Origin: an uncultured Acidobacteriota bacterium
GTDB taxonomy: Bacteria > Acidobacteriota > Vicinamibacteria > Vicinamibacterales > UBA2999
Length of the DNA stretch: 64,000 bases
NCBI GenBank assembly: GCA_963827515.1
Contig: CAWHBF010000022.1
Coordinates: forward strand, 1,857-65,856
Direction: 5' to 3'
Shown here: in pieces, positions 6,556 through 61,097 of the stretch
Layout of the letters: the number at the start of each line of letters is the position of its first letter
Position numbering within the stretch: position 1 is the stretch's first letter
Program-made: the position numbers and the translations under genes
Notes under the pieces: model-generated
What the model was told of the DNA's origin: nothing
The model's database searches: none
Seen by the model: the letters and a program-made list of their open reading frames with translations, nothing else

Positions 6556-6655
6556 CCAGGCCGATTTTTGATTCGGCGTAGAGCGGAGGCTTCAGCCTCC
6601 GCGGACACGCGAAGGCGGAAGCCTCCGCTCTACGGCGAAACGCAAATCGCTCTAG
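6556..6655. repeat. ~100-bp REP-doublet/MITE-like element, chimeric copy
   Basis: GATTCGGC-GTAGAGCGGAGGCTTCAGCCTCCGC-GGACAC...CTCTAC-GGCGAAACGCAAATCGCTCTAG. Confidence 0.9.
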
Positions 6656-7215
6656 CCAGAAGAACACCGCTGCCATGCATCGAGAGACTCGAAGAACTGC
6701 CGTGACTCGGCCGTCGAGTACTCGTCGATGTATTCAAGCAGCAGCTTCTTGTGTCCACAGAGCCGCTTCTCGACGTACCAATCGAGCGGAAACGTGACAT
6801 CCTCCTTTCTTACCAGGCCGGAGCGGACCGCCGCCTGCAGCTGACTGACCATGAACAAGAAGCGGTCGAATCGGTCGGTGATGAATCGCTGGGTCTCCGT
6901 GCGCCGCCCTTTCGTTCGCAGGGACGCTTCGATGGCCGCAGGCATCTCACGAGGGAGGATGTGCACTTTCGTGCCTGGCGCGATCTCGTAGGTGCGGCCC
7001 TCCTCCCAGTCGAGCATCGTCAGCGCCTGCCAACCCTCGTCGTTGATCATGCCGTTGATCAGCGTCCGCGCCATTTCGGCCTGCCGCCATTCGAGCTCTC
7101 TGACGCTCTGCGCCACGCTTCGCCGATACTGTTCGATGCCGATCGCCGCCGCGACGAGCGCGCTGAGGATCGTCACGTACCGCCAAATCGATTCGAGCCG
7201 GCTGGCCTCAGACAC
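6652..7215 (-). CDS. Hypothetical membrane-anchored protein
   Basis: 187-aa ORF with one N-terminal TM segment and protein-like composition; stop lies in the repeat end. Confidence 0.65.
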   Translation of the reverse strand: MSEASRLESIWRYVTILSALVAAAIGIEQYRRSVAQSVRELEWRQAEMARTLINGMINDEGWQALTMLDWEEGRTYEIAPGTKVHILPREMPAAIEASLRTKGRRTETQRFITDRFDRFLFMVSQLQAAVRSGLVRKEDVTFPLDWYVEKRLCGHKKLLLEYIDEYSTAESRQFFESLDAWQRCSSG

Positions 7216-7581
7216 AGCGTTGTTCCTCTAGTCGTTCGGTCCTGGGTGCGCGAATCCGCGGCCTCGACCTGCCGCTGCAGCGCTCAGCTCCCGCGCTGGC
7301 ACTTTTCCCCGCCACCTCCGGCCGGCCGGAGGCACCTCCGGAACATCCACGCGCACGTCGGGATCGTTTGCGACGATCGTGCGATTTCTGCCCGAAAACT
7401 CGGGAGCTGTCATCGCGGCGACGGGGACGCCCACGGCGGAGCAGGTATCGTGCCTGAAGATCGCCGCCCATCGGGACCCTGTCACCGAAGACCGTTGGAG
7501 GCTACGGTATTTCGTAGATCAAACCCGCGTGTCAGCGCTCAGCTGTTCGGAACCAGGACTTTTTGGCGGAAAACAGGCCTT

Positions 7582-7626
7582 AATCAAACGATTGCACGCG
7601 GCTGTTCAGCTGGCCGCCGACTTGCT
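7582..7626 (+). promoter_or_regulatory. IHF-like site plus sigma54 -24/-12 motif
   Basis: AATCAAACGATTG (7582-7594, matches WATCAANNNNTTR) and TGGCCGCCGACTTGCT (7611-7626, GG-N10-GC). Confidence 0.6.
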
Positions 7627-7745
7627 CCCCCTAAACGGGCTGCGTCCCGCTGTCCAGGGAGATTTTTGCGCCAAGGCGTCGTGGTGTTGACTTGGCTGGT
7701 CCTACTAGAGCTCGCGGCGTGCGAACTGGAGAAGAGGGTATTGCG

Positions 7746-9641
7746 ATGATCTCGAATCGTCGTTGTCGTGCCGTCGGCATCGTCATGTTGCTGCTGATCG
7801 GGACCCACCCAGTGTGGACACAGCAGGCTCCCGTCGGCGCCGAAGGTCCCGGGAGCACCTATTCCACCTTGCATCCGCAGCCGAAGCGGCTTGTCGACGA
7901 CTGGTTCAAGCGGTTGAGCGCCGTCGTCCAAAAGCCTGTCGACCCGGCAGAAGGCTATGAAAACCTGCCGCTGTCGACTCGAACGACGTTCAACGCGGTC
8001 ACCCACGCGCTGCTCATGACCAAGCTCACGGATGCTTCCGGCGAGAGTCTCTCGGATTCAGCCATGGATCTGGTGGACCGAGTCGACGAGGTCGCCGGCC
8101 AGATTCTTGGCTCGAGAGGCGACCGGCAGTTCAGGATCTACGTCCAGTTGAAGCCCGGTGCATTGGAGCTTCTCACCAGGAGCAAGGAGTTCTCCCGCAC
8201 CGCCGACAACACTGTCTATCACAAGGGCTACCCCATCTGCTTCCGCAGCACGGGCGGTACACCGTCGATCCAGTTCTCTCTCTCGCGCGACGCGTCGAGA
8301 GCCGACATCGATGTGGATTACCGCTCCTCAATATTTCCCGTGGCACTGTTGAACGGACACTTGACGGCGTCTAATTCCGACATTCGCGCCAGCGGCAACG
8401 ATGAGAAGCACATCCAACAGTGGGCGGGCATGCAGAACTGGTGGCGAAACCTGCTGGGCCTGCCATATGCGGAGACGCTTCGAGTGGGCGCGGAGTCAGA
8501 CCGCGTCATCTCAGCCGCACCTCGACGTAAAGGTGGCAATCCTTCGGATGCTGTCCTCGATTTCTTGAGTGGCTGGCTGGTGGAGCAGAAGCCGGAGGAA
8601 GCCATCGCCTACTTTGCCGAACAGAGCTACGCCTGCGTGGATGTCCAAAACAAGGCGACGACCGATCGCGGCGTGGTGAGTTTCGTGCTGCTGCAACGGA
8701 TGATGGCCGCGAATGCGCAGATCGGGAAGATGTCGTCGCTCAGCGACGCCGTCGTCGGCGTCGCGATCAGCAGCGAACGCTTGAAGGTCATCCAGCAACC
8801 GTACCATTCCACGTTCGTCTTGTACGACGTCAGAGAAGACCTGGCCGAGGAGTTCAAGTGTGTCAACCGGTTGGATTCCAGCCGAGTGTCCTCGAAAGCC
8901 CTGAAGTCCCGGTCCTTCGGCAAGTATGTCGGTGCCATGTTTGCCATCAAGGCCAATCAGCAGACAGCCGCCAGAACGGTGGCGACGCTGTGGCAGCGAG
9001 AAGGCGGCTACTGGAAGTTGATCTCCTACGATGTCGATCCCGAGATCGACCGAAGCCGCGTACCAGATCTTCGCGCCGCGGTCGCCGCCGACGCGCCGTT
9101 GGAATACGTGCAAGGCGACAAGGAGATGGTCAAGGCCGCCTCGAGTTTCATGAGGGAGTGGCTGGTCAGGAAGAATGTCGAGAAGGCGCTCGAGTACGCC
9201 GCTCCCGAGTCTCTCGCGTGCGTCACGCTGTACCGTGCGGACGATGTCCCGGCCCCGTCGACGCCCGCGGCGGCGCGCGATCTGCTCAAGACGGGGATGG
9301 CGAGCGCAGCGGCAGCGATCGGCTCGGTGAGACGCCTCGACGGCGCGATCGTTACCCCTGAGGTTCATCACCAGGCGCTGAAACTGGTGAAGCACGCTGA
9401 GGACGCGGCGTTCGTCATTGCATCCATCCCCGAATCCATGGGCGCGGCGGCCGACTGCGGGCGCCGCAGACCCGATGGGGATCCGGATTTCAGCGGCGCC
9501 ACAGCGACAGGCTACGGCAGGTATTACGCTGCTGGCTTCAACTTCAGTAACGGCAACATGGATCCCGCGACGTTGTGGACTGTCTGGAGCAACGTCAACG
9601 GCTCGTGGAAGGTCGTGTCGTATGCGCTGCTCAGTCCCTAG
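7746..9641 (+). CDS. Large secreted hypothetical protein with an internal duplicated domain
   Basis: Signal-peptide-like start; repeated motifs FLxxWLV..EEA..Y....S.ACV and W....G.WK..SY. Confidence 0.75.
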   Translation: MISNRRCRAVGIVMLLLIGTHPVWTQQAPVGAEGPGSTYSTLHPQPKRLVDDWFKRLSAVVQKPVDPAEGYENLPLSTRTTFNAVTHALLMTKLTDASGESLSDSAMDLVDRVDEVAGQILGSRGDRQFRIYVQLKPGALELLTRSKEFSRTADNTVYHKGYPICFRSTGGTPSIQFSLSRDASRADIDVDYRSSIFPVALLNGHLTASNSDIRASGNDEKHIQQWAGMQNWWRNLLGLPYAETLRVGAESDRVISAAPRRKGGNPSDAVLDFLSGWLVEQKPEEAIAYFAEQSYACVDVQNKATTDRGVVSFVLLQRMMAANAQIGKMSSLSDAVVGVAISSERLKVIQQPYHSTFVLYDVREDLAEEFKCVNRLDSSRVSSKALKSRSFGKYVGAMFAIKANQQTAARTVATLWQREGGYWKLISYDVDPEIDRSRVPDLRAAVAADAPLEYVQGDKEMVKAASSFMREWLVRKNVEKALEYAAPESLACVTLYRADDVPAPSTPAAARDLLKTGMASAAAAIGSVRRLDGAIVTPEVHHQALKLVKHAEDAAFVIASIPESMGAAADCGRRRPDGDPDFSGATATGYGRYYAAGFNFSNGNMDPATLWTVWSNVNGSWKVVSYALLSP

Positions 9642-9668
9642 GCTGCTAGCCCTTCGGACGTCTTCCGT

Positions 9669-9695
9669 TTAGAGCGTTTTTCGATTCGGCGTAGA
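9669..9695. repeat. Truncated end of the ~100-bp element
   Basis: TTAGAGCGTTTTTCGATTCGGCGTAGA. Confidence 0.75.
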
Positions 9696-9726
9696 AGCTG
9701 TGACTCGGCAGTCAGGACCTCGGGCA

Positions 9727-10101
9727 TCAGCTTCGGTCGGCACAGAGGCGCTTGATGACCGACAGCAGGTCGTCGGATGAGAGCTTCGAGACGAAGGCAG
9801 CTGCTCCGGCCTGGAGGAACGCCTGGCCGGCGTTCGGATCGTCCAGGGCCGTGAACATGATCACTTTCATCTTGGGGTTGACGCGCGTAATCTCGCGACA
9901 CGCCTCCAGTGCGTGGACGTTCGGGAGATGCACATCGAGCACAATCACGTCGGGCTGGAGTCGTTGCGCCGTCTCCAGCAGCGCGCTGCCGTCCGTGAGG
10001 CTTCCCACGATCTCGAAATCCAGTGCCAGCAACCGGCTGAGGGCTTTCACGATGTCAGGGTAGTCGTCTGCAAGCAGGACACGGGGTCGCGTGGACAACA
10101 T
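9727..10101 (-). CDS. Stand-alone response regulator receiver (NarL-type REC, no HTH)
   Basis: VLLADD, PDVIVLDV, FVSK; RBS GGAGG. Confidence 0.88.
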   Translation of the reverse strand: MLSTRPRVLLADDYPDIVKALSRLLALDFEIVGSLTDGSALLETAQRLQPDVIVLDVHLPNVHALEACREITRVNPKMKVIMFTALDDPNAGQAFLQAGAAAFVSKLSSDDLLSVIKRLCADRS

Positions 10102-10236
10102 GAACCTCCGTTGGGACTATCGATTCGCGAGCGACACGATGGTGGCCGTCAGGATGTTGCCGTCGACGGGCTGCAGACACACGCGGCGCACCCGTCTGAT
10201 GCGCGCGCTCCTGTATTCGACTGATCAATGGCGCGT

Positions 10237-10336
10237 CTAGCCCGTTTTTCGATTCGGCGTAGAGCGGAGGCTTTAGCCTCCGCGGACACGCGCACGCTGA
10301 AGCGTGCGCTCTACGTCGAAACGCAAACCGCTCTAG
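10237..10336. repeat. Complete 100-bp REP-doublet/MITE-like element
   Basis: CTAG...GTAGAGCGGAGGCTTTAGCCTCCGC-GGACAC-GCGCACGCTGAAGCGTGCGCTCTAC...CTAG. Confidence 0.95.
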
Positions 10337-10538
10337 TGTAACGCGTCCGCAACGGACGCCGCTGCGCTGCGGCGCAGCCCTGATTTTTCAACGAGGATGA
10401 CACCACACAGCCACGAAACGCATGCCGGCCCTCGGTGGAACCCTCGATTTTCGAACTGCTGAGGCCGAAGGTAGCCGCGAAGCGAGGAGCCCCAAGTAGG
10501 TGTGATACCTTTCCCGCCACAGCTGATGGCTGTTCGGG

Positions 10539-12729
10539 GTGTGTCGCTGTGTCTCAGAACAGGTCGTGCGTCATGGTTTCGGCGACGCGCAATGGTTTTG
10601 GGTGGTACAGGGGAGGAAAACGGCCACGGAACTGATCGATGTTCAGCGTGAACCGCTGCTGAATCGCGAACTCGCCGCTCGGACAAGCGCCGAACCAGAG
10701 GGACGATCCGCCTGGGCATCGCTCCACACGGTGTCCTGCGTCCTGGCGAGCACCCTCAGCTATTACGTCGCCACGCAGATCGCCTGGACGCTTACTTTTC
10801 CCGATAGCAAAGTCTCACTCTTTTTTCCCCCGCAGGCGGTTCTGCTGTGCGTCCTGCTGCTCGTCCCCACTCGGCACTGGTGGGCCTACGTGCTCGCCGC
10901 CGCCAGCGCTCATTTTCTGGCGACCCAGCAGGCGGACTGGCCGCCGATGTACGCATTGACCTGCGAGGCGTTCGACGCTGTGAAATGCGTCGCGGCAGCG
11001 GCGGGGATTCGCATTCTGATCAAGTCTCCCCTCAAGGCAATCACGCTTCGTGACGCGATTCTCTTCGTCCTCATCGCAGTGGTGCTCGTGCCTTTCGGGA
11101 CCGCCTTCTGGGGTGCGTCCTTTACGGTCTCCTACGGTTTCAGCACTCAGTATTGGGTCGAATGGCTCAACCTGGGAATCTCGAATGCGGTAACGACCGT
11201 CGTCCTGGTGCCGGCCTTTCTGCTGGGTGCGCACTATCTGTTCCTCAGACGCCCGAGAGCCCTGCCCCGCCGACGCGCGCTGGAAGCGGCTCTCGTCGGT
11301 GCGTGCACGGTAGCGTTAGGCATCTTCGTATTCGATCAAACGCCGGCGGGTCCCAACACTTCGCCCGCTCTCTTATATGCGCCGATTCCTCTGCTCATCT
11401 GGGCGGCGCTCCGCTTCGGCCTTGGTGGAATCAGCGTCTCGATGCTGATCATTACCTTCCAGGCGATCTGGGGAACCATGCGCGGGCACGGCCCGTTCCT
11501 GGCCCAAACCCCCGCCGAGAATGCGACGGCACTACAGCTATTCCTCCTGGTGACAGCCACTCCGCTGATGCTCCTCGCGGTTGTCATCGAAGAGGAAAGA
11601 CGCTCGAAGGAAGCGTTGCGTGAGAGCGGGAACCTGATGGGTCTCGCCGCGGAAGCAGGAAACCTGGCTATGTGGGTGTGGGATGTTTCCGGCAACGATG
11701 TGTGGATGACCGAGCGGGGGCGCTCGCTGTTTGGCCTCAAGCCAGACGCGCGCCTCGATTTTGCGGCAACTTTCGATCGCGTGCACCCCGAGGATCGCGC
11801 CGCGCGTGAAAACGCGATCAAACACGCGCTCGAGACGCGAGGCGAATACGAAATGGAGTATCGCGTGCAGCAGGCGGATGGCATGGCCCGCTGGGTTCAT
11901 GGGAGCGGTCGTTGTGTGGGGCCTGACGACGGCACCGGCCCCAAGCTGTTCGGTGTGTCGATGGATGTCACGGCTCGCAAACAGGCGGAGGCGTCCGCCG
12001 CGCAAAAGCGGGCAGAACTGGAGCACGTCGCCCGCGTTGCCACACTCGGCGAGCTCACCGCCACCCTGACGCACGAATTAGGGCAGCCACTCGCCGCGAT
12101 CCGCACCAACTCCTCCCTCGGCGTGCGTTTGCTCGACGCACCCGAGCCCGATCTCCAGGAGGTGCGCAGCACGCTGGCCGACATCTGCGAGGCCACCGAG
12201 CACGCCGGCGAAGTCATTGGCAGGCTACGCGCCATGCTCAAGCGCGACAGCACGGCGGCGGGCTTGACCAACGTCGATGTGAACCATGCGATCCGGATCG
12301 TCGAGCGCATCGTGCACGGCGACGCGAATCGGCACAAGGTCACGGTCCACCTCGACCTGTCGTCCGACGTCCGTCCGGTCAAGAGGTGACAGCGTCCAGC
12401 TTCAGCAGGTCATCTTGAACCTGATGCTCAATGCCTTCAGCGCCATGAGCGGAACCGAACTCGACGGCGCGCGGCGCCTGATCGTGCGCACGAAGTCGAT
12501 TGATGCATCGAACGTACTGGTCGAAGTCCAGGACAGCGGCACTGGAATCGCCGCGGACGAGCTCGAGTCGATCTTCGATCCCTTCATCACCAGCAAGCCG
12601 GAAGGACTGGGAATGGGCCTGTCGATCTGTCGCTCCATCATCGAACGCCACGGCGGCAAGATATCCGCGGCGAACAATCCCGACCGCGGCGCAACGTTCT
12701 CGATTACGCTGCCGATCGCCCGCGCGTGA
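10539..12729 (+). CDS. MASE1-PAS sensor histidine kinase, frameshift ~12385; start uncertain
   Basis: Multi-TM N-terminus, VHPEDR PAS motif, H-box LTHELGQPL, N/G1/F/G2 boxes in the next frame. Confidence 0.85.
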
Positions 12730-12809
12730 ATCTGACCGTGCGGCATGTGCGGGCGAAGTGAATCCCGGGACAACGAACAGTCCCTACTCCGCATACGCCC
12801 CGCCTACCC

Positions 12810-13625
12810 ATGAAGGGCGCGCTTCGGCTTCTGGTGTTTCGACTGTTGTGGACCCGGCAGGTCAAGATGGTGCTCGAGCGGGTGCCGTTGGTGCGGCGCA
12901 TCTACGACGGATGGAGACGGCAGCACCCTTTTGACCGGATGTACGGCCTGGATACCAGCGGGGTGATTCAGGCCAATGACCTCGGCTTCGACCCGGACCT
13001 GGCCGCGCATTCCAGCCCCTATGGTGGCTCGCAGCCGAGCATCGTGCGGCGCTGCCTCGCGACCTTGCCCGACCCCGCGGAGTACACCTTCGTCGATCTG
13101 GGCTGCGGCAAGGGCCGGCCATTGTTGGTGGCCTCCGAGTTTCCCTTTCAGCGGGTGGTGGGCGTGGAGATCGCCCCTCGCCTGGCGGAGATCGCCCGTC
13201 AGAACGCGGCGACCCTCAGCCGCCAACGGGGCCGGCAGGTTTCGATCGAGGTTCAGGTCGGCGACGCGACGACCACCGCGGCGCCGGCGGTTCGCGTGGT
13301 CTATTTCCTGTACAACCCCTTCGACGCGGTTCTGATTGGCGGCGTGGCCGGGAACATCGCTGCCCAGCTCGGCGAGCGCCTGGAGCACGCGTTCATCGTC
13401 TATTACAACCCGGTCCACGCCCAGGTATTCGATCGCTCGCCGCACTTCGCGCGCTGGTCGGCGCGGAGACTGTGGTACGCGTCCGACGAGGTCGGCTATG
13501 GCCCTGATCTCGACGACTCGGTGCTGATCTGGCAGACCGTTCCCGGGCGGTATCCGCCACAACCCGGCGCCGGGCGGCAGGTGATCGTCGACCGGGACCA
13601 TACCCGGGCCATGGTCGTCGCTTGA
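12810..13625 (+). CDS. Class I SAM-dependent methyltransferase
   Basis: FVDLGCGKGR, VGVE, YFLYNPF. Confidence 0.82.
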   Translation: MKGALRLLVFRLLWTRQVKMVLERVPLVRRIYDGWRRQHPFDRMYGLDTSGVIQANDLGFDPDLAAHSSPYGGSQPSIVRRCLATLPDPAEYTFVDLGCGKGRPLLVASEFPFQRVVGVEIAPRLAEIARQNAATLSRQRGRQVSIEVQVGDATTTAAPAVRVVYFLYNPFDAVLIGGVAGNIAAQLGERLEHAFIVYYNPVHAQVFDRSPHFARWSARRLWYASDEVGYGPDLDDSVLIWQTVPGRYPPQPGAGRQVIVDRDHTRAMVVA

Positions 13626-13714
13626 ATGGCTGACAACGCCGATTCCTCTTCGAACTGGCGAAGGGCGCGCGGCACGAATAAGACGCTGTGGCGAAGGAGA
13701 ATCGTAGAAGCGGA

Positions 13715-14839
13715 ATGCCCGTGGTGCACAGATCCCGCACGTATGCAGACGTCAATGCCGTCGTCGGCGGATACCTGCGTGACTTGGCGTTCGCGCAGTC
13801 GTCTCAGCAGAAGATGCTCGGCTACAAGCGGGCCGCATCTGCAATCCTCGCACTTGATCTGCCGTTAACCGATCTCGTGGGCTCTGACGGCGCCTTACCG
13901 AGGATCGCTGGTATTGGGCCCGCCTCCACACGAGTCATCCACGAGATTCTGCATACCGGCGAGTCACCCACCGTCGAACACGCGATCGACCGGAGCGACC
14001 GCCGTGCAGACATTGAGCGTCGACGCCAGCTTCGGCGACACTTCCTCAGCCGCGCCGAGGTCCGGCGCGTTCTCACGGATCCAGCATTCCCGGGTCCGAC
14101 GCTTCGGGAGTACCGCGGGGACCTGCAAATGCACTCCGAATGGAGCGATGGCGATTCGACGGTGCAGGAGATCGCCGATGCCTGCCTACAACGTGGTTAT
14201 CACTACGCGGCGGTCACCGATCATTCATACGGACTCAAGATCGCCGGCGGGATGTCGATGGCCGAAGCTGCCCAACAGCGGAGAGCCATCGACGACGTCA
14301 ACGCCAGGCACGGCAATCAGTTCAGGCTGTTGCAAGGCATTGAAGCGAATATCGACGCCGCCGGCCAGTTGGACCTTTCCGACGCTGAGGCGACGACCTT
14401 CGACGTGGTATTGGCCGCGCCGCATTCGCAGCTACGAAAGGACGAGGATCAGACCAACCGCATGCTGGCCGCAATCGCGCACCCGGCAGTCAGGATCCTT
14501 GCTCACCCGCGTGGCCGGATGACCGGATCGCGCGCGGGGGTGATCGCCAATTGGGACGCGGTGTTTGCCTCGGCGGCTCTGCGCGGGGTCGCGATCGAAA
14601 TCGACGGGGATCCCGCACGACAGGACCTCGATCACACGTTGGCGTCCCGCGCCCTTGAAGCGGGGTGCGTGTTCGCCCTCGACAGCGATGCGCATACCAC
14701 CACGCAGCTCTCGTATGCGGAGACCGCGCTCGCGCACGCGCGCCTTGCCGGTATTCCCGCCGAACGAATCGTGAACTGTTGGCCGCTTGACCGGCTTCTG
14801 GCCTGGCTCTCGAATCCATCGTCGGAAGCTCGAGCGTGA
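13715..14839 (+). CDS. PHP-domain protein with PolX-like HhH N-terminus (no polymerase core)
   Basis: YKRAA/IAGIGP HhH; GDLQMHSEWSDG, TDHS, LAHP, DSDAH. Confidence 0.82.
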   Translation: MPVVHRSRTYADVNAVVGGYLRDLAFAQSSQQKMLGYKRAASAILALDLPLTDLVGSDGALPRIAGIGPASTRVIHEILHTGESPTVEHAIDRSDRRADIERRRQLRRHFLSRAEVRRVLTDPAFPGPTLREYRGDLQMHSEWSDGDSTVQEIADACLQRGYHYAAVTDHSYGLKIAGGMSMAEAAQQRRAIDDVNARHGNQFRLLQGIEANIDAAGQLDLSDAEATTFDVVLAAPHSQLRKDEDQTNRMLAAIAHPAVRILAHPRGRMTGSRAGVIANWDAVFASAALRGVAIEIDGDPARQDLDHTLASRALEAGCVFALDSDAHTTTQLSYAETALAHARLAGIPAERIVNCWPLDRLLAWLSNPSSEARA

Positions 14840-14861
14840 CTGTCACCCAGTGAAGGAATTC

Positions 14862-14906
14862 ATGCCATTCAAGAGCCAGGCGCAGCGAAGGAAGTTCGCA
14901 CAGCTC
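14862..14906 (+). pseudogene. N-terminal remnant of a small conserved protein (MPFKSQAQRRKFAQL)
   Basis: RBS AAGGA plus ATG; recognisable start, then the sequence loses similarity. Confidence 0.45.
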
Positions 14907-14955
14907 GATCCTGCGACAACGAACAGCTCTGTGCGGGCGATCATAGAATCGCCCT

Positions 14956-15678
14956 GTGTTTTTTGTCGCGGTGTTCTTCGTCGCGATCCTCTCCGGCGCC
15001 ACGGCCACCGTCGTCGGATTCGGGATTGGCAGCCTGCTGACTCCGTTGCTCGCCGTCACATTCGGCACCACAACGGCGGTGGCACTCGTCACGTTGCCGC
15101 ACGCGGCGGCGACGGCCGTCCGCTGCTGGCGCTTGCGCGCCCATGTGGATCGGACTGTCCTTGTGCGATTCGGCCTGCTCAGCGCAGCGGGCGCGCTGGC
15201 AGGCGCTCTGATTTATACCCGACTCGGTCCGGGCGCTCTAACGCGTGTCCTCGGTGGTCTTCTGCTCTTGACGGCCGTCGCGCAGCTCACGGGCTGGGCC
15301 TCTCGCTGGCAACCGCATGGGCCGGTTGTGGCGTTATTCGGCCTCGTGTCTGGCTTCTTTGGCGGCATCGCCGGCAATCAAGGCGGTCTGCGCTCGGCCG
15401 CGTTGACGGCATTCGGCCTTCCACCACTTGGATTCGTCGCTACCGCGACGGCAACCGGCCTCCTGGTAGATACGGTGCGAACACCCGTCTACCTCTGGCA
15501 CTCGGGGCCAGTCATGCTCACGCTCTGGGCACCCATCATCGTCAGCACGGTAGGAGTCCTCATCGGGACCATAGTGGGCGAGCGGTTGCTGCTGGGATTG
15601 TCGCCGCGCCATTTCGGCAAGGCCATCGGCGGGGCAATCGGCGCACTCGGGATCTGGATGCTCGTGATACCGGTATAA
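14956..15678 (+). CDS. TauE/SafE (TSUP) family transporter
   Basis: GFGIGSLLTP, GGIAGNQGG, about 8 TM helices. Confidence 0.85.
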   Translation: MFFVAVFFVAILSGATATVVGFGIGSLLTPLLAVTFGTTTAVALVTLPHAAATAVRCWRLRAHVDRTVLVRFGLLSAAGALAGALIYTRLGPGALTRVLGGLLLLTAVAQLTGWASRWQPHGPVVALFGLVSGFFGGIAGNQGGLRSAALTAFGLPPLGFVATATATGLLVDTVRTPVYLWHSGPVMLTLWAPIIVSTVGVLIGTIVGERLLLGLSPRHFGKAIGGAIGALGIWMLVIPV

Positions 15679-15754
15679 CGGACCAGGAGCACGGCTTTCG
15701 CGCTGGCACAACGCCTCAACATGCTCCGAATATGAGCAGCGGTGCAGGACGTCC

Positions 15755-17150
15755 CTACATGTCGTGCCTGAGCACGACCATTTTCTCTTGCGACATGTCT
15801 TCCATGGAGGCAGGTATGCCCCCGACGCCGTAGCCCGACTGACGTCGGCCGGCAAAGGGCATCCAGTCGGTGCGAAACGCCGTGTGGTCGTTGATGAGCA
15901 CACACGATGCGTCGAAGCGCTCGGCAGCCCGAAGCGCAGGCGCGATGTCGGTTGAGAAGATGCTGGCCTGGAACGCAAACGGCAGCGCGTTCGCGGCGTC
16001 GATCGCGCGATCGAGATCCTGAAATCCGTAGACACAGGTCACCGGGCCAAAGATTTCCAGTTGAGACACCTTGGCATCGGCTCGGCGGCTCTACCAGGAC
16101 GGCCGGCATCAGCGTCGTCTCCGAGTATCGGCCGCCGCCAAACAGGCGTGCCCCGCGCGATGTCGCTTCCTCGAGCCACGACGCGACGCGGCTGGTCTCG
16201 CGAGGATCGATCAGCGGACCGACCTCCGTCTCGCGGAGCAGCGGATCCCCGACGCGAAGGCGCCCGACCCGGGCGGTCAATCGTTCGACAAATCCGCCGA
16301 TGATGTCCTGATGCACGAAGATCCGCTGTGTCGACACGCAGACCTGGCCCGCGTGGTAGTAGCCGCCTTTGACAATCGGCTCGATCACGGTGTCGAGATT
16401 GACGCTGCGGTCCACAATCACGGGAGCGGCGCCACCATGCTCCAAGGCGCATCGGGTTCCCGGGGAGAGCCGACTGTGCAAATGCCACCCCACCCGCGCT
16501 GAGCCAATGAAGCTGAGGAACGCGATTCGCGAGTCGGTGGCGAGACGCTCCGCAAGAGCGTTGTCATCGGTGATGAACGTCTGGCACCAGGCTTCGTCGA
16601 GGCCTGCCTCCTGGAACAGCTTGACGAGCTCCAGGCACGACAACGGCGTGGCTGCCGCTGGCTTGACGATGACGGGACACCCGACCGCAATGGCCGGTGC
16701 CACCTGATGCACGATCAGATTCAAGGGGTGATTGAAGGCCGATATCGCGGCGACAACGCCGATGGGTTCCTTCGTGGTGAACGCCCATCGACGCTCACTC
16801 GCCGGCGTGAGCCCCATGGGAATCTCCCGGCCGGCGAAGGTGCGAAGCGCTTCCGCCGCGTTGCGCAAGCCGTCGATGGCCCGGATCACCTCGGCAGCGG
16901 CGTCGCTGACCGGCTTGCCCCCTTCCCGCGCAATGCGTGTGACAAACGGCTCTTGCCGGGCCTCCAGGAGACTCGCGGCACGCTGGAGCACGGCACTTCT
17001 CTGATGTGGCCTGAGCCATCCATCGCGGTTGCGCATGGCCGCCACGGCGAGAGCGAGCTTCTTCTCGAGGGCATCGCCGTCGTCTGCTGCCACCTCCGCG
17101 ACCAACGTGCGGTCGAAGGCCTGTACCACGCGAAGCGTCTGTGTCAGCAT
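15755..17150 (-). CDS. Aldehyde dehydrogenase family protein, frameshift ~16070
   Basis: AFNHPLN, FIGS, LEHGG, GQVCVS, EIFGP, PFAGRRQSG. Confidence 0.88.
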
Positions 17151-17204
17151 CGGTCCGGCGCCGCCGCGATTCGTTCTCGTATCTCCTCGACCACTACCCT
17201 GCGC

Positions 17205-18064
17205 TCAGGTGAGGGCGGAAGCTGCTTGATGTCCGTCGTGTGAAATCGAGACCCGGTCCGGGTGGAGTACACGACAAATCGTCGATCGCGGAGAAAGCCG
17301 ACCAACGTAAGCCCTCCATCGCGCGCCATCTGCACGGCGAGGCTCGATGGCGCAGATACCGACGCGAGAATCGGCAGGCCCGCGACGAGCGCCTTCTGCA
17401 CGATCTCGAACCCGCCGCGGCCGCTCACCAGAAGAATCCGTTCGGACCACGGGAGCCCCCCGTGCAGGAGCGCATCGCCGATGACCTTGTCGACGGCGTT
17501 GTGTCGACCGATGTCCTCTCGCACCAGCATCAGCGTCCCGTCGGAGTCGAACAATCCAGCGGCGTGCAGCCCGCCGGTGCGGCCGAACACGCGTTGTGCC
17601 GAGCGGAGCACCGCCGGCAGGCGCGTCAGCACCTCCGGCTCGACGCTGAAGCGTGGGTTCGGACGAGGCATCTCGCGTGATCGCAACGCCTCGATCGACG
17701 TCCTTCCGCAGATGCCGCACCCGGACGCTGCGAAGAAGTGACGCTGTAGCGCACCGAAATCGATGCCTGGGTCACGACGAAGCGTCACCTCGACGATGTT
17801 GCCCGTCGTCTCTCCGTCCGATCCCTGTCCATACGAGATTCGGGAAATATCGTCATGTCGATCGACGATACCTTCGCTGTGGAGAAAACCTGCCGCAAGC
17901 TCGAAGTCGTCGCCCGGCGTGCGCATCGTCACCGTGACGACCGACGCTCCAATTCGGATTTCGAGAGGCTCTTCCCCGGCCAACTCGTCGAGAACGCGAA
18001 CGCCTTGTCCGTCGTTCCATTCGAGCACGTGCGTCGTCTTGACACGTTGAGGGATGTGGCGCAT
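17205..18064 (-). CDS. fdhD: Formate dehydrogenase accessory sulfurtransferase FdhD; probable frameshift near the C-terminus
   Basis: EEPLEI, MRTPG, SGCGICG, TGGLHAA, EDIGRHNAVDK; VYS|HPDRV junction. Confidence 0.9.
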
Positions 18065-18243
18065 AGGCGGCGGGGTGCTCGTGATTCTACATCGCCTCGA
18101 GCGTGTTGGCCGTGCCTGTTCGCGCCCAGGACGCCACACCGTGCCCTCGGTTTTCAACGCCTACGTGGTGTCACTGCCCGCCGCTCGCACCCGCGCCTCG
18201 ACGTCCTTCACCATGTGGCATCTCATGTGCTTAAGGCACAGCG

Positions 18244-19236
18244 ATGATACGTCCGCGCATCGTCATCGTCGCGACCGGCGGCACGATTGCCGGCACTGCC
18301 GAGTCCACGACCGCTGCCGGATACCAGTCCGGCGCAGTCGCCGTCGATGTCCTCATCGCCGCCGTGCCGCAAATGACGAGGTTCGCGGAAGTCCGTGGCG
18401 TGCAGGTGTCGTCGGTCGGCAGTCAGGACATGAACGACGAGCTCTGGGTGATGCTCGCGACCGAAGTCAATCGTCTGCTGGCAGCAGCGGACGTCGACGG
18501 GGTCGCCATCACGCACGGCACCGATACGATGGAGGAAACCGCGTACTTCCTCAACCTTGTCGTCAAAAGTGACAAGCCGGTGGTCCTCACGGGTTCGATG
18601 CGACCATCCACGTCGCTCGGCGCCGATGGCCCGTTGAACATCTACAACGCGGTCGGCGTGGCGTCCGATCCGAGGGCGAAAGGGCGTGGCGTGCTGGTGG
18701 TCGCCAACGACGATATTCACGATGCGCGTGCGATGACCAAACGCCACACCACCGACGTCCAGACGTTCGTCTCACCGGAGGTCGGGCTGATCGGCGTCTG
18801 CCTGTTCGACGATCGTGAGTTCGTGCGCTCGCCCGTGCGGGCGCACACGACGGCGACACCGTTCACGGTCGCCACGGGCCAGGTGCTGCCACGCGTCGAT
18901 GTGATCTACGCACACGCCGGGATGTCTCCCGACGTGATCGATGCCGCCGTTGCCAACGGCGCGAAGGGCCTGATCGTCGCCGGCGTCGGCCACGGCAACA
19001 TGACGACGCCGGCGCTCGACGCCGTCACGCGCGCGATCGGCCAAGGCGTCGTGGTCGTGCGCTCGACGCGAGTCGGCGACGGCATCGTCCGCCGCAACAT
19101 CGAGGTCGACGACGACACTGTCGGCACAGTCGCGTCGAAGGAGCTCAATCCGGCGAAGGCACGCGTCCTGCTGAAGCTCGCACTGACCCAGACGTCGGAC
19201 CCACGGCAGGTGCAGGAGTTCTTCGACACCTACTGA
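18244..19236 (+). CDS. L-asparaginase (type II-like, no signal peptide seen)
   Basis: ATGGTIAG, HGTDTMEET, SMRP, LNPAKAR. Confidence 0.9.
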   Translation: MIRPRIVIVATGGTIAGTAESTTAAGYQSGAVAVDVLIAAVPQMTRFAEVRGVQVSSVGSQDMNDELWVMLATEVNRLLAAADVDGVAITHGTDTMEETAYFLNLVVKSDKPVVLTGSMRPSTSLGADGPLNIYNAVGVASDPRAKGRGVLVVANDDIHDARAMTKRHTTDVQTFVSPEVGLIGVCLFDDREFVRSPVRAHTTATPFTVATGQVLPRVDVIYAHAGMSPDVIDAAVANGAKGLIVAGVGHGNMTTPALDAVTRAIGQGVVVVRSTRVGDGIVRRNIEVDDDTVGTVASKELNPAKARVLLKLALTQTSDPRQVQEFFDTY

Positions 19237-19255
19237 GGATCGAAACGGCTCGCTC

Positions 19256-19633: not shown

Positions 19634-19663
19634 GAGAGGATGCCTCACTCACATCACTCGAGG

Positions 19664-19814
19664 CTAGAGCGGTTTGCGTTTCGCCGTAGAGCGCACGCTT
19701 CAGCGTGCGCGTGTCCGCGGAGGCTAACCGCCTCCGCCAAGGCTACGGCGGTCCGCCGAAGCTTTACGCGAAGGCGGAAGCCTCCGCTCTACACCGAATC
19801 GCAAAGCGCTCTAG
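19664..19814. repeat. 151-bp element copy carrying a 50-bp palindromic insert (19728-19777)
   Basis: CTAG ends; CCGCCTCCGCCAAGGCTACGGCGG-T-CCGCCGAAGCTTTACGCGAAGGCGG in the hairpin loop. Confidence 0.95.
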
Positions 19815-19824
19815 ACGAGCGAGG

Positions 19825-25842: not shown

Positions 25843-25899
25843 ACACAAACAGTTACGAGGTTGGCGAGAGCCAACGACGAAATTGGCGTAAGGCTTGCG
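25843..25899 (+). promoter_or_regulatory. IHF-like site plus sigma54 motif
   Basis: CACAAACAGTTA then TGGCGTAAGGCTTGCG (25884-25899), 26 bp before the ATG. Confidence 0.65.
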
Positions 25900-25924
25900 G
25901 CGGGATTACGTTCCACCAGCCCCC

Positions 25925-31020: not shown

Positions 31021-31126
31021 ATCGGTCAGTCTACTTCGGCATCCGCGAATCCGGATCGGGCGTACGGTCTTGGACGTGGCCAGGGGCGCTGAGAAGGCTG
31101 GCCCTCGTTCCCCATCTCGAGGAGCC

Positions 31127-48777: not shown

Positions 48778-49692
48778 ATGTACGACGTCCTCGGCGTCGG
48801 CGCCAACTCCGTCGACTACGTCTATCGCCTCCCGCAGTTCCCGCAACCGGACGGCCCAGCCTCGAAGCTGCGGATCTCGCATCACACCATCTCGTGTGGC
48901 GGACAGACCGCGACGACCCTCTGCACATGCGCCGCGATGGGGCTCACCACGCGATACATCGGCGCCACGGGAAGTGATGACAACGGCCAGCTCATACGCG
49001 ACGCCCTCATGGACCGCGGTGTCGATATCGGGCAAAGCGTCGAGAGTGACGACGGCAACGCCTTTGCGGTGATTCTGCTCGACCAGCGAGAGGGTGAACG
49101 AGTGGTCCTCTGGCAACGCCCGCCAGGGCTCGAGCTCGCGCCAGGAGACCTCGACCCTGACGTCATCTGCGACGCCCGGCTGCTTCACGTGGACGACGTG
49201 GACATCGACGCATCGATTCGGGCGGCCTTGATGGCGCGAGCGGCGGGCCTCCCGGTGACGAGCGACATCGAGCAGGTCGGCGAGCGGACGGAGGAGCTTG
49301 TCGGCGCCGTGACGATTCCCATCTTTGCCGAGCACGTGCTGGAGCCGCTCACCGGGGAGCAGGATTTCGAACGGGCCCTGCGGAAGCTCAGGCGCCGTCA
49401 TGCGGGAATGCTGTGCGTGACGCTCGGTGCACGCGGTGCGATGTTGCTCGACGGTGACGAGCTGCACGAGCAACCCGCCTTTCCGATGATCGTCACCGAC
49501 ACGACCGGAGCGGGAGACGTCTTTCGCGGCGCCTTCATCACGGCGCTGCTCCGCGGCGATGCGCCGCCGGACATCCTGCGATTCGCCAACGCCGCCGCGG
49601 CCATTTGCTGCACCCGTCTCGGCGCGATCGCCGGTGTGCCGACACTGGCGGAGACCGAGGCGCTGGCTCGCGGCAAGGGTCGCGCAGGCTAA
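48778..49692 (+). CDS. PfkB family carbohydrate kinase
   Basis: GG...T, VTLGARG, DTTGAGDVF. Confidence 0.9.
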   Translation: MYDVLGVGANSVDYVYRLPQFPQPDGPASKLRISHHTISCGGQTATTLCTCAAMGLTTRYIGATGSDDNGQLIRDALMDRGVDIGQSVESDDGNAFAVILLDQREGERVVLWQRPPGLELAPGDLDPDVICDARLLHVDDVDIDASIRAALMARAAGLPVTSDIEQVGERTEELVGAVTIPIFAEHVLEPLTGEQDFERALRKLRRRHAGMLCVTLGARGAMLLDGDELHEQPAFPMIVTDTTGAGDVFRGAFITALLRGDAPPDILRFANAAAAICCTRLGAIAGVPTLAETEALARGKGRAG

Positions 49693-49866
49693 CCGCCTCC
49701 GCCAAGGCTACGGCGGTCCGCCGAAGCTTCAGCGCGAACGGCGGAAGCGCGCGCTACGTAAGGTCGGACACTTCCTTCGATTCGGCGTAGAGCGGAGGCT
49801 TTAGCCTCCGCGGACACGCGCCACCTGTAGAGCGCACGCTTCAGCGTGCGCGGAACACGAGGGACT

Positions 49867-54131: not shown

Positions 54132-54230
54132 CTAGAGCGGTTTGCGTTTCGCCGTAGAGCGCACGCTTCAGCGTGCGCGTGTCCGCGGAGGCTAAGCCTC
54201 CGCTCTACGCCAAATCGCAAAGCGCTCTAG
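54132..54230. repeat. Complete ~100-bp element copy
   Basis: CTAG ends; the right end overlaps the actP stop. Confidence 0.95.
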
Positions 54231-56037: not shown

Positions 56038-56063
56038 GAACGGGAAACTATATAGGAAAGTTC

Positions 56064-57192: not shown

Positions 57193-57218
57193 CAGAACGA
57201 TCGCGCAGGCAGAATGCC

Positions 57219-57241
57219 GCGCACGCTAAAGCGTGCGCTCT
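57219..57241. repeat. Solo REP hairpin
   Basis: GCGCACGCTAAAGCGTGCGCTCT between convergent genes. Confidence 0.8.
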
Positions 57242-57261
57242 GAGCAGTGGTTCGCGGGCAT

Positions 57262-58397: not shown

Positions 58398-59252
58398 GTG
58401 ATCACGACCTTCCGCGCTGTCGCACTCTCCGCGCTGATGGTGCTCGTCGCGGTTTCGCAGGCGACCGCCCAGCAAACACAGGACGAGAGGCCCGGCGAAT
58501 CGGCCGCCGGACAGGCATCGCAACTCGACGCCGCGCACAACCTCTTCTACAGCGGCCGCTACGAAGCCGCGGCTGCCCTCGCCCTCGAAATACGCACGCT
58601 CGAACCTGGCAACCTCGACGCGTCGGAGCTTCGCACGTCCGCGCTCCATTTTCAGATCCGTCGTGCCCTCGGAGAACCCAAGGATCGCGACAAGGCATGG
58701 AAGGCCTGCTCCGTGTGCCAGGAGCTGATGCCCGTCTTCCTCGCGGAGCTCGCAGTCGGGCAAACAGAAGCCCGAGCCAGACTGATGCGGAATCCACTCG
58801 ATGACGAGGCGCAGTTCTTTCTCGGAAAAATCGATCTGAACTACGTGTGGCTCCAGCTCGCCACCATCGGTCGGAAGACAGGATGGAAAGAGTATTGGGA
58901 GGCGCGCAGGTCGCTCGACGCGGTGCTCAAACGGCGTCCGGATCACATCCGTGCTCGTGTGGCCCGAGCCTGGATCGACTACATCGTCGATACGAAACTC
59001 CCCTTCGGTACCGCGTGGCTCGTCGGCGGCGGCGACAAGAAGCGAGGTCTCAGTGTCGTCCGCGAGGCCGCGGTGGCCGATGCCGAACGCTATGTTCAAG
59101 CTGAAGCGATGTTCGCCCTGTGGGACATGCAGGTACGCGAAAAGAACTTCCCCGAGGCGGTCGTCACGGCGCGAGCGCTGTCGGAAGACTTTCCAGACAA
59201 CGTCGACCTCGTCAAGTTCGTCGCCACGCACGATCGGCAAACGAGTCGATAG
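58398..59252 (+). CDS. Secreted TPR-like helical protein
   Basis: RBS GGAGG, signal peptide, TPR-like helices, FPDN. Confidence 0.7.
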   Translation: MITTFRAVALSALMVLVAVSQATAQQTQDERPGESAAGQASQLDAAHNLFYSGRYEAAAALALEIRTLEPGNLDASELRTSALHFQIRRALGEPKDRDKAWKACSVCQELMPVFLAELAVGQTEARARLMRNPLDDEAQFFLGKIDLNYVWLQLATIGRKTGWKEYWEARRSLDAVLKRRPDHIRARVARAWIDYIVDTKLPFGTAWLVGGGDKKRGLSVVREAAVADAERYVQAEAMFALWDMQVREKNFPEAVVTARALSEDFPDNVDLVKFVATHDRQTSR

Positions 59253-59332
59253 CACCTCGCGGCCAGCGTTTCGCCGGGGCTGGAGTCACAGCCGTCACTC
59301 GGCAGTCACGGCCCTCGCTTACAATGCCGCTC

Positions 59333-60970
59333 ATGCGCCGGCGCCTGCTTCTCCTTCTCGGCCTCGCGACCTGTCTGTCGGTGGCGCCAGCCACGAGTCA
59401 GACCGCGCCTCCGCAACCGAGGCTGGTCCTGGTCCTGTCCATCGATCAGATGCGATTCGACTACCTGACTCGCTTCGAACCTCTCTACACCGGCGGCCTG
59501 CGAACGTTGCTCGACCGAGGGGCCGTGTTCACCGACGCAAAGTACCGTCATTCCGCGAACGAGACCGGGCCCGGCCACTCCGTGATTCTCACCGGTCGGC
59601 ATCCCAGTCATTCCGGCATCGTCGCGAATGACTGGTTCGACGCGACGCTTGGCAGGGCCGTCAACGTCGTCGACGACCCCAGGCATCGACCCCTCGGCGG
59701 CGCCGGCCGCGCAGCGTCGCCAGCGCACCTGGGCGTCGATACCATCGGCGATCTCCTGAAGATCAAGAACCCACAGTCGCGTGTCGTCGGCGTATCGCTG
59801 AAGGACCGATCCGCGATTCTCATGGGCGGACGGCGGGCGGACGCGGCGTACTGGTACGAAACCAATGGAGGCAACTTCATCACCAGCACGTACTACATGG
59901 CCGCCACGCCGGGATGGCTGACCGACTGGAACGGCCGGCACATGGCCGACCGCTATGCAGGTCACACATGGAACCGCCTGCTGCCTGATGCCGAGGCGTA
60001 CGGCCGGTACGCAGGCCAGGACGCGATCGAGGGCGAATGGGATCGCAAGGACACTTCCTTCCCGCATGCCATCCGCGGGCGGCCGCCGGAGGTCAGGTTT
60101 TACGACGACTTGCGCCGTACGCCATTCGCGGACGAGCTCACGCTCGCGTTCGCGCTGGAGGCCATGCAGGCACACCACATCGGGGTGGACGAGGTCACCG
60201 ATCTCTTTGCCATCGGCTTCTCAGCGACGGATATCGTGGGCCATACCTACGGACCTGACAGTCACGAAACCATGGACCAGTTGCTGCGCCTGGACGCCGT
60301 ACTCGGTCGATTGTTCAAGGCGATCGACGCGAACGTCGGCATGGCGAACACGTTGATGGTCCTCACCTCGGACCATGGCTCGTTGCCGCTGGTCGAGAAC
60401 CTGCGCGTGAAGGGCATGGACGCTCGGCGAGCGAATCCGTCGGTTCTCCGGGGCGCCGTCGAACAGGCATTCGCGACACGGTTCCCTGGCGTGACGAACC
60501 TGATCCAGTATTTCTCCTCACCCGACTTCTTTCTGAACGAGAGGGCGATGCAGCGCAACAACCTTTCACGCAGGAGCGTGGAAGAGACGGCGAGTGCGGC
60601 GCTGCTGACGACGGGCCTGGTCGCACAGGTCTACACCCACGAAGACTTGAGACGGGCCGGGCCTTCGTCCGATCCGTATCTGCAGCTGTTCCAAAATTCC
60701 TTCTACGAACCGCGAAGCCCGCATCTGAACGTCCTGCTGAAGCCGTGGGTCTACGTCAGCACGCTTCCCGGGGGAACCGGCCACGGCACCGCATACGATC
60801 ATGACAGGCACGTGCCGATTGCCTTCATGGGTGCCCGAATCAGAGCCGGCAGATACGCCACGCCCGCCGGCCCTGAAGACATCGCGCCCACGCTGGCTAC
60901 GATGCTCGGACTGGACCTGCAGCCCGAAGAGGACGCGAGGATTCTGCTGGAAATGCTTCGAGCCAACTGA
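59333..60970 (+). CDS. Alkaline phosphatase family protein (PafA/PhoV type)
   Basis: SIDQMR, ETGPGH, SLKDR, D..GH, TSDHG, TGHG. Confidence 0.88.
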   Translation: MRRRLLLLLGLATCLSVAPATSQTAPPQPRLVLVLSIDQMRFDYLTRFEPLYTGGLRTLLDRGAVFTDAKYRHSANETGPGHSVILTGRHPSHSGIVANDWFDATLGRAVNVVDDPRHRPLGGAGRAASPAHLGVDTIGDLLKIKNPQSRVVGVSLKDRSAILMGGRRADAAYWYETNGGNFITSTYYMAATPGWLTDWNGRHMADRYAGHTWNRLLPDAEAYGRYAGQDAIEGEWDRKDTSFPHAIRGRPPEVRFYDDLRRTPFADELTLAFALEAMQAHHIGVDEVTDLFAIGFSATDIVGHTYGPDSHETMDQLLRLDAVLGRLFKAIDANVGMANTLMVLTSDHGSLPLVENLRVKGMDARRANPSVLRGAVEQAFATRFPGVTNLIQYFSSPDFFLNERAMQRNNLSRRSVEETASAALLTTGLVAQVYTHEDLRRAGPSSDPYLQLFQNSFYEPRSPHLNVLLKPWVYVSTLPGGTGHGTAYDHDRHVPIAFMGARIRAGRYATPAGPEDIAPTLATMLGLDLQPEEDARILLEMLRAN

Positions 60971-60997
60971 CCGCGTCAGTCGTCGCCTGACCAACCG

Positions 60998-61097
60998 CTA
61001 GATCGCTTTTCGATTCGGCGTAGAGCGGAGGCTTTAGCCTCCGCGGACACGCGCACGCTGAAGCATGCGCTCTACGTGCGAACAGCAAACCGCTCAG
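60998..61097. repeat. ~100-bp element copy
   Basis: Both hairpins present; the end overlaps the tcuB stop. Confidence 0.92.

Follow-up and report, generated by a model that had tools for sequence, protein, structure and literature searches.

How should a short bacterial repeat be classified when its ends resemble those of one kind of mobile DNA and its interior is built from another? The question is raised by a 64,000-nucleotide stretch (the window; C22:1857-65856) of the Vicinamibacterales-like metagenome-assembled genome of a soil acidobacterium (MAG; 5.85 Mb, 35 contigs, 64% G+C; G000 below). Homologs of one of the window's genes sit mostly in Vicinamibacterales or Acidobacteriota MAGs. 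[quoted passage not shown] The two are treated as separate classes. The window holds eight two-armed and two partial copies of an element that appears to join them, and it is probably an IS630-type MITE shell filled with two of the host's own REP hairpins.

From end to end the element comprises TA, a 19-nt arm, a REP with a GTAG head, the spacer GGACAC, an inverted GTAG REP, a second 19-nt arm, and TA. The canonical 98-bp copy, at 10238..10335, reads:

10238-10239, TA
through 10258, arm a
10259-10283, plus strand, REP-A
10284-10289, spacer GGACAC
10290-10314, minus strand, REP-B
10315-10333, arm b
10334-10335, TA

This copy is 95-98% identical to other genome copies over 97-104 nt, and the unit repeated at that identity extends from TA to TA, arms included. 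Pairing of inverted arm matches across G000 defined 84 two-armed elements: 39 are exactly 98 bp long, 49 fall at 97-99 bp, 17 at 147-150 bp, and two at 73 bp. The 149-bp class is the 98-bp form plus a 51-nt imperfect palindrome within the REP-A loop; both 73-bp copies are missing exactly the 25-nt REP-A. In both its 98-bp and 149-bp classes the element is non-coding, short and multi-copy.

An earlier sequence-only reading of the window had listed ten places, and all of them hold the structures described, each true TA starting one base after the coordinate given. The single form that it described has to give way to two size classes (98 and 149 bp), with the copies at 19665 and 30266 in the longer. 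The copy at 6557 departs from its pairing of REP-A with an inverted REP-B, a third variant, REP-D, taking the place of REP-B.

Counted genome-wide, the arms are conserved in the 84 two-armed copies. Identity of the 98-bp copies to their own consensus averages 95%, and 5 of the 39 reach at least 97%. Per-position conservation in these 39 exact copies is 0.77 and 0.83 at the two terminal TAs, 0.92 in the arms, 0.98 in the REPs, and 1.00 in the spacer. Arms a and b share 16 of 21 positions, and the 98-nt unit as single-stranded DNA has a predicted Y-shaped fold of an outer stem and two hairpins (-33.2 kcal/mol, z -5.35). Arm matches with up to five mismatches number 306 in G000: 228 are followed exactly by GTAGAGCG, and the 65 with no GTAG-like head after them are mostly five-mismatch noise or indel variants. 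Elements first scored as 'one-armed' or 'armless' proved mostly to have REPs or arms with indels.

The palindrome of the 147-150-bp class (CCGCCTTCGCGTAAAGCTTCGGCGG A CCGCCGTAGCCTTGGCGGAGGCGG-like; window 19716-19764; 17 copies) is nested in the TTTA loop of REP-A. It is flanked by a repeat of at most 1 nt and leaves no TA duplication, and so was placed by a different process.

Does the shell occur apart from its REPs? The core of arm a is matched 96 times in G000; the 150 other genomes of the order have 0-2 matches apiece, which all carry two mismatches and equal the level of a reversed-pattern control, that is, chance. Among 185,579 species genomes scanned, the arm was found mainly in one other MAG, the acidobacterial casp150-mb.205 (G164). 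There, 242 arm matches form a REP-less MITE of 104 bp in about 120 copies. Twenty-five of these were read: 15 are 104 bp long, TA is present at 23 left and 19 right ends, c and g flanks occur at 18 each, and none contains a GTAG REP. No Y1_Tnp gene was found in this fragmented MAG, and a 516-kb portion of it yielded no recurrent GTAG REP, versus 80 GTAG-plus-hairpin matches in 516 kb of G000.

A metagenome scan for the arm returned 83 stretches, six of which link it to a transposase. In these six contigs, six different upstream flanks end in TA, and the common sequence begins with TA and GAGCGGTTTTCGATTCGC. The arm is followed by TTGCATAGG, a ribosome-binding-like GAAGGAG, and, beginning 66 nt inside, an open reading frame (ORF). 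Its first 61 residues are 100% identical to a 313-aa protein, P0001, which scores against the profiles DDE_3 (8e-25) and HTH_Tnp_IS630 (1e-10). The end of this insertion sequence (IS) agrees with the window's arm b at 18 of 20 positions and with arm a at 17 of 20. By sequence match, then, the arm is the predicted TA-flanked left terminus of an IS630-family DDE IS. In that IS end and in the REP-less 104-bp MITE, the shell occurs apart from REPs. The sequence-only reading had proposed looking for an IS630 or IS5 transposase that shares the terminal inverted repeat (TIR); the start of such a gene lies beside the left end in the six contigs, and none was found in G000.

What do the ends say about insertion? 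Of the 84 copies, 57 have TA at the left end, 62 at the right end and 41 at both, so the earlier description of TA as constant does not hold. Nor does the base outside vary at random: 57 of the 84 left flanks have C there and 54 of the 84 right flanks have G, which makes the context cTAg. Position 3 of the element is G in 77 of 84. Ends lacking TA differ mostly by single transitions that are not matched between the two ends. A duplication of 3 nt (CTA/TAG) or 4 nt was rejected, because the base at -1 varies (C 57, T 16, A 6, G 5 of 84).

Duplication of TA was examined by joining flank, TA and flank for all 84 copies and comparing the products with the genome by BLAST. Twelve joined flanks gave matches across the junction. 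Six rebuild an intact REP-C hairpin with a TTTA/TAAA loop (one is 100% identical over 32 nt), two rebuild a degenerate REP-C, and four are uninformative, one being a self-match. The genome contains 13 intact REP-C hairpins with a TTTA loop and none with a loop of 2 or 6 nt, the sizes given by reconstructions with no TA or two TAs. Six copies of the element sit in the TA of REP-C hairpin loops, and, given the rebuilt hairpins and the absence of the other loop sizes, the net insertion is L-2 at TA, where L is the element length and L-2 the net insertion expected with TA duplication.

A related metagenome contig (L286; L-numbers denote fetched loci or contigs) with flanks 83-89% identical carries a 98-bp copy where G000 has none. 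The anchors lie 109 nt apart in the contig and 13 nt apart in G000, and the difference, 96, equals L-2; the G000 site reads TG, not the expected TA, and the comparison is length-consistent with L-2 insertion. Thus six paralogous sites and one related contig, each at L-2, fit the TA duplication that had been proposed.

Orthologous empty sites were sought for window 5500-11500 and 1-20000 in 30 relatives and four further loci or genomes, and these were too divergent or non-syntenic. Loci around homologs of the ORF at 10539-12389 lose homology upstream of about 10420-10485. None of the joints listed in four soil runs over window 1-20000 (contig data only) skips exactly one element. A 95% match of genome G025 to window 1-6529 was rejected as an empty site, as it diverges after the stop codon preceding the element.

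G025, placed in another family of the order, has 6.5 kb (C24:63201-69727) in common with window 1-6529 at 95% identity. The similarity stops precisely at the stop codon that precedes the element at 6557, which could reflect transfer, mis-binning, or recombination whose boundary fell at the repeat. Within 10 nt outside the ends there often seem to be additional CTAG motifs or incomplete copies of the first 5-6 nt of the element (ctagcTAG..., ctagacTAGAC..., ...CTAgctaggctag; for example, flanks at C8:136635, C23:627541 and C28:181558). These could be excision footprints, repeated insertions at a single site, or a target rich in CTAG.

The cargo belongs to a large REP population. G000 contains 508 REPs with the head GTAGAGCG, of four stem types:

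REP-B, stem-loop GCACGC-TTCA, 257 copies
REP-A, stem-loop GGAGGC-TTTA, 109 copies
REP-C, stem-loop GCAGGC-TTCA, 97 copies
REP-D, stem-loop GGAGGC-TTCC-GCCTTC, 45 copies

Types A and D are preceded by TAGACCGCTTTTCGATTCGGC (arm a), and type B by TAGAGCGGTTTGCGTTTCGCC (arm b) in about half its copies; an arm never precedes REP-C. About 300 armless REPs are dispersed in the genome. The A-B doublet is almost always armed, with only one or two of about 100 lacking arm remnants. (Escherichia coli BIMEs, or bacterial interspersed mosaic elements, likewise pair two REP types, Y and Z.) In REPINs, the mobile unit is the REP doublet itself, which is not known to have TIRs or to duplicate TA. Here the repeated unit is not the bare doublet but runs from TA to TA with the arms.

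REPs are served by a REP-associated tyrosine transposase (RAYT), and G000 has one such Y1_Tnp locus, at C33:169622-169906. It is flanked by three REP-B-like sequences and two REP-C, all armless; the RAYT flanked by REP-A and REP-B that had been anticipated is therefore found with a REP-B-like flank, with REP-C instead of REP-A, and with a frame that looks broken. Compared with the intact ortholog in G004, a different genus of the same family, the G000 RAYT (L001:1338-1848, minus strand) is out of frame from the GYYDH region onward, which makes it either a pseudogene or the product of a one-base assembly error. The 169-aa RAYT of G004 is flanked by an armless REP-B and another GTAGAGCG REP, and arm b followed by GTAGAGCG is absent from G004, G001, G006, G017 and G025. 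From the armless REPs at the G004 RAYT and the lack of the arm in the relatives named it follows that REPs and RAYT predate the shell in this family. Nor does an arm lie within 1.5 kb of Y1_Tnp at any of 14 loci in eight genomes. With the shell existing without REPs and REPs existing without the shell, shell and cargo are separable.

Two further observations concern REPs alone. G000 holds a second GTAG REP family, GTAGTGTCCGGC/GTAGTGTCCGCC with a TTCA hairpin (16 matches in the first 516 kb of C1), which also occurs at L241:2860-2900 and flanks a Y1 gene in another MAG (G168, L229). In addition, L241:2700-2900 and G000 C33:128085-128250, which are 97-98% identical, each show a one-armed element and then a REP-C array, the arrays differing by one unit; this difference is a BIME-like gain or loss of a unit.

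Is the combination of shell and REP confined to one genome? A scan for an arm followed directly by GTAG yielded 48 stretches, many of them in unrelated phyla, chance-like and inside genes. Genuine composites are carried by five further Acidobacteriota MAGs:

MFD02416.bin.1.281, 10 stretches, two-armed, with a GTAGCGGCCGACC / GTAGCCGCGGACC doublet
13_1_40CM_65_14, 3 stretches, GTAGCGGCG then a long non-REP hairpin
MFD04944.bin.1.4, 2 stretches, GTAGTGTCCGGC REPs
SMAG_U3748, 1 stretch, GTAGGCGGGGGC
MFD06229.bin.2.140, GTAGGGCGG REPs

Two further doublets, of GTAGCGCGGCCC and of GTAGTGCCCGCC, follow the arm in metagenome contigs. The composite layout is arm, GTAG-REP, short spacer, inverted REP-CTAC and arm, with differing hairpin sequences in four MAGs. 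At least six acidobacterial lineages thereby have IS630-type ends abutting GTAG, with lineage-specific REP hairpins in five, G000 included: the shell is conserved, and the REPs in it differ by lineage. This could reflect a single old capture with later REP replacement tracking each RAYT, or else repeated capture. Y1_Tnp genes are present in all five composite-search genomes (four MAGs of the list and MFD02242.bin.2.39) and also in MFD06229.bin.2.140, and no arm lies at any of the nine Y1 loci of the five. In three genomes, the Y1 gene is flanked by armless REPs of the arm-enclosed kind, as seen in that genome or in matching metagenome contigs.

Together, these results suggest a model in which the 21-bp ends (TA plus 19 nt) would be TIRs recognised by an IS630-type DDE transposase, which would cut the element and paste it into TA, preferring cTAg and duplicating the TA. 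The original interior would have been wholly replaced by a tail-to-tail REP-A/REP-B pair with GGACAC between, and the enclosed REPs would belong to the genome's RAYT (HUH tyrosine transposase) system. Presumably the family spread by means of a transposase supplied in trans and since lost from, or unassembled in, G000. The REP cargo would have been acquired and then kept matched to the resident RAYT, through either REP replacement in the shell or repeated capture. This IS630 reading is the best supported, because the arm matches the end of an IS630-family IS, because the arms bound a REP-less MITE in a MAG that yielded no Y1 gene, and because insertion is L-2 at TA with inverted repeats. It agrees with the sequence-only reading's central proposal, a hetero-REPIN within a DDE-type MITE shell, and the three outcomes that would have told against that proposal did not occur.

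Several findings weigh against it. With P0001 as query, tblastn of G000 returned nothing at E<=1e-3; the two IS630-like (DDE_3) genes of G000 lack arm-like ends, and its one DDE_Tnp_1 gene has no arm within seven mismatches. A P0001 relative at E<=1e-40 was present in 1 of 401 sampled Acidobacteriota genomes; this sole relative shares 45% identity, is interrupted by a stop, and lies near no arms. Only the left end of the IS is seen: 80 metagenome loci yielded neither its right end nor a duplication around the IS itself. The IS contigs have 54-59% G+C versus 64% for G000, which indicates an organism other than G000. Within the element, per-position conservation is lower in the TA (77-83%) than in the arms (92%) or the REPs (98%). 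A net L-2 at TA is equally expected from an HUH enzyme inserting 3' of TA without duplication. Finally, a pure DDE model does not predict the junction of arm and GTAG seen in at least five other Acidobacteriota MAGs, four of them with the genome's own kind of REP. A search of G000 for PF13586 also found nothing. A cognate transposase in the same genome is common for a MITE but not required.

The last of the points on ends and junctions lead to a quite unlikely alternative, in which the arms are conserved outer parts of an extended REPIN moved by the RAYT alone. The HUH enzyme would bind GTAG plus hairpin, cut single-stranded DNA about 21 nt outside at CTA/G, and insert 3' of TA without true duplication; likeness to an IS630 end would be secondary. 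Some Y1 transposases, those of the IS608 type, do make their cut a fixed distance away from a subterminal hairpin, inserting beside a short target with no duplication, and L-2 at TA, taken alone, fits DDE and HUH mechanisms alike. The main evidence for this alternative is the lineage-specific REPs in a conserved shell: the arm abuts GTAG in at least five further Acidobacteriota MAGs and in further metagenome contigs, four MAGs have the same heads-out, tail-to-tail doublet with another hairpin sequence, the enclosed REP type is the type flanking the resident Y1 gene in three genomes, and every searched genome with arm-GTAG composites has Y1_Tnp (G000, G165, and 5 of 5 others). The better conservation of REPs than arms (98% versus 92%) and the two 73-bp copies, each minus exactly one 25-nt REP-A unit, also fit. 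However, the arm terminates an IS that encodes a DDE_3/HTH_Tnp_IS630 protein, and about 120 MITE copies with the same arm exist in G164, a fragmented MAG in which no Y1_Tnp or GTAG REP family was found. Moreover, none of the 14 Y1_Tnp loci (eight genomes) has an arm within 1.5 kb, and the roughly 300 armless REPs dispersed in G000 indicate that REPs spread without arms.

It is also unlikely that the family is a fossil, its dead MITEs persisting as REP-like structured DNA (terminators or mRNA 3' hairpins), which would make the dual-enzyme idea moot. No cognate transposase was found in the assembly, the RAYT looks frameshifted, arms and terminal TA have decayed more than the hairpins, and contigs 96-98% identical to G000 keep the element at the same sites (L248, L256, L263, L262, L241), all as a fossil would have it. 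On the other hand, presence and absence differ at one site in a relative with 83-89% flank identity, and 5 of the 39 copies match the consensus at 97% or better; multi-copy IS elements often go unassembled in a draft such as this one of 35 contigs, and a sequencing error could account for the single-base frameshift of the RAYT. As explanations, chance similarity and assembly artefact have next to no credibility, and nothing was found in their favour. Within three mismatches, REP-A occurs at seven places in the window and REP-B at ten, and neither in any of 100 shuffles. The 84 copies have differing flanks, and four soil metagenomes from four studies agree in where their contigs break, at the element boundaries 10237 and 19664 (the arm's outer end). 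Parts of the window are present in the data of 12 studies.

A broader form of the IS630 reading is more tentative, and on balance doubtful: a two-enzyme chimera may be general in soil Acidobacteriota, the IS630-type shell carrying a RAYT-matched REP doublet in each lineage, with REPs using a DDE vehicle and the RAYT rewriting the cargo or cleaving the CTAG ends of the shell.

Several candidates for an autonomous or source element were rejected. On C6, two inverted arms 1.55 kb apart enclose a membrane-protein gene; these arms are remnants of separate copies. In G164, an arm pair spanning 1393 bp (L103:795-2188) encloses a DDE_Tnp_1 gene; this is a nested IS5-type IS with a 360-aa DDE_Tnp_1 ORF, its own inverted repeats and a duplicated CTAG, lying inside a MITE copy. 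An IS630-like IS of G164 (L098:838-2145) has different ends; it bears a frameshift at an A-run and adjoins a MITE copy, with one TA in common.

How does the element compare with known systems? To our knowledge, neither 21-bp outer repeats ending in TA nor L-2 insertion is a described feature of REPINs, and the literature searched does not describe an IS630-type MITE with a REP doublet for its interior; closest to it are the composites of GTAG units with stem-loops and the TIRtrons treated below. REPINs and RAYTs (Bertels & Rainey; PMC3116915, PMC3337134) share with the element an inverted REP pair, a short spacer, GTAG heads, and a RAYT flanked by REPs; the element is set apart by its outer inverted repeats and its net insertion of L-2 at TA. 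Correia/NEMIS of Neisseria and RUP of Streptococcus pneumoniae are IS630-derived MITEs (PMC2817692). They have in common with the present family a length of about 100-150 bp, non-coding sequence, TIRs of about 20-26 bp, TA flanks, high copy number, intergenic position, strong hairpins, and reliance on a transposase acting in trans. Unlike Correia and RUP in that account, the element has only two GTAG REPs of the host RAYT between its TIRs, and in other genomes the same TIRs enclose other REP types.

Di Nocera et al. (2013, PMC3733652) describe hundreds of 'bizarre structures' in Pseudomonas, degenerate GTAG units adjoining unrelated stem-loops, as well as TIRtrons, Y1 transposase genes with long flanking TIRs, among which an acidobacterial group is sharply defined. 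The present family is set apart from TIRtrons by their description, not by comparison of TIR sequences: none of 14 Y1 loci has the arm, and the arm ends an IS630-family IS. ISPpu9 inserts into REP sequences (PMC12288879), and the six copies in the TA of REP-C loops likewise use REP hairpins as landing sites. Unlike ISPpu9 as reported there, for which REPs are the target, the element carries REPs as cargo.

What is new here is the role of REPs as the cargo of a mobile element. Two separate classes of small bacterial repeats are physically fused, and the fusion recurs. If the two-enzyme chimera is true, it would give the first example of REPINs carried along by an unrelated transposon class, and REPs would spread within genomes, perhaps between genomes, by a DDE vehicle. 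If the cargo is kept matched to the host RAYT, this would provide a route for founding, moving or renewing REP populations, explain the minimal and strongly folding interior of the MITE, and offer a tractable system (two enzymes, a 98-nt substrate) for the long-open question of how REPs and REPINs move. For annotation, the same element would be a REP to one tool and a MITE to another.

The remaining copies and modules in the window are as follows:

6557-6654, 98-bp copy; REP-A 6578-6602 (plus), REP variant D 6609-6633 (minus) replacing REP-B; left TA reads CA
9670-9690, plus strand, truncated copy: a lone arm with two mismatches to arm a, then GTAG and non-REP sequence
19665-19813, reverse orientation, 149-bp class; arm b, REP-B 19686-19710 (plus), GTGTCC, headless REP-A-like hairpin with the 51-nt nested palindrome, REP-D 19768-19792 (minus), arm a
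30266 to about 30413, 149-bp class; left arm with no mismatches, degenerate right arm running into the 3' half of a REP-C stem
31123-31219, reverse orientation, 97-bp copy; REP-B 31144-31168 (plus); left arm degenerate at its outer end
40965-41062, reverse orientation, 98-bp copy; REP-B 40986-41010 (plus), REP-A 41017-41041 (minus); preceded on the left by the 5' half of a REP-B stem (GCGCACGC followed by TA)
41089-41113, minus strand, solo armless REP-B with one mismatch
49681-49729, plus strand, 51-nt palindrome module outside any shell, in a REP-C-like stem; 98% identical to 19716-19764
49776-49851, plus strand, partial copy; inner 11 nt of arm a, REP-A 49787-49811, GGACACGCGCCACCT, REP-B 49827-49851 in direct orientation
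54133-54229, reverse orientation, 97-bp copy; arm b perfect, REP-B 54154-54178 (plus)
57219-57243, minus strand, degenerate solo REP-B with head TCAG and three mismatches
60999-61097, 99-bp copy; REP-A 61020-61044 (plus), REP-B 61051-61075 (minus); right arm with five mismatches and a 1-nt shift

The three occurrences of REP-B alone that had been noted (41089, 49827 and 57219) are thus present, the last degenerate. A repeat finder run on the window returned families of 46-103 nt at the REP-A and REP-B places, and no Rfam family matched in the window. At the site of 19665..19813, a derivative of 52 bp stands in the related metagenome contig L308. Contigs L255 and L274 are 97-98% identical to G000, and in each the element's two flanks match different G000 contigs (C25/C29 and C25/C21, respectively); either copies of the element have recombined, or the assembly is chimeric at the repeat.

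Window 10539-12389 encodes a 616-aa ORF with 85-93% DNA identity in about 27 different Acidobacteriota MAGs. It lacks an ortholog in the same-genus genome G001 (best match 31%), and four soil metagenomes cover it 10-30 times as deeply as the genes beside it. It looks to be a gene that is widely shared or has been transferred, and was rejected as a marker for placing G164 because it is not an ortholog marker.

Some copies touch reading frames. The terminal CTA at 6652-6654, 31217-31219, 54227-54229 and 61094-61096 is the stop codon of minus-strand frames of 187, 571, 587 and 332 codons, respectively. A stop-codon role for the terminal TAG was rejected, since the enrichment is too weak: frames of at least 100 codons are closed at 38 of 168 ends, versus 25 of 168 and 33 of 168 in the other two frames and 14% at random TAA/TAG sites. 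Window 25895-30268 is a 1457-codon open frame with tandem repeats of about 357 nt (27387-29120; four to five units, 63-74% identity), and its stop TAG is the first TAG of the element at 30266.

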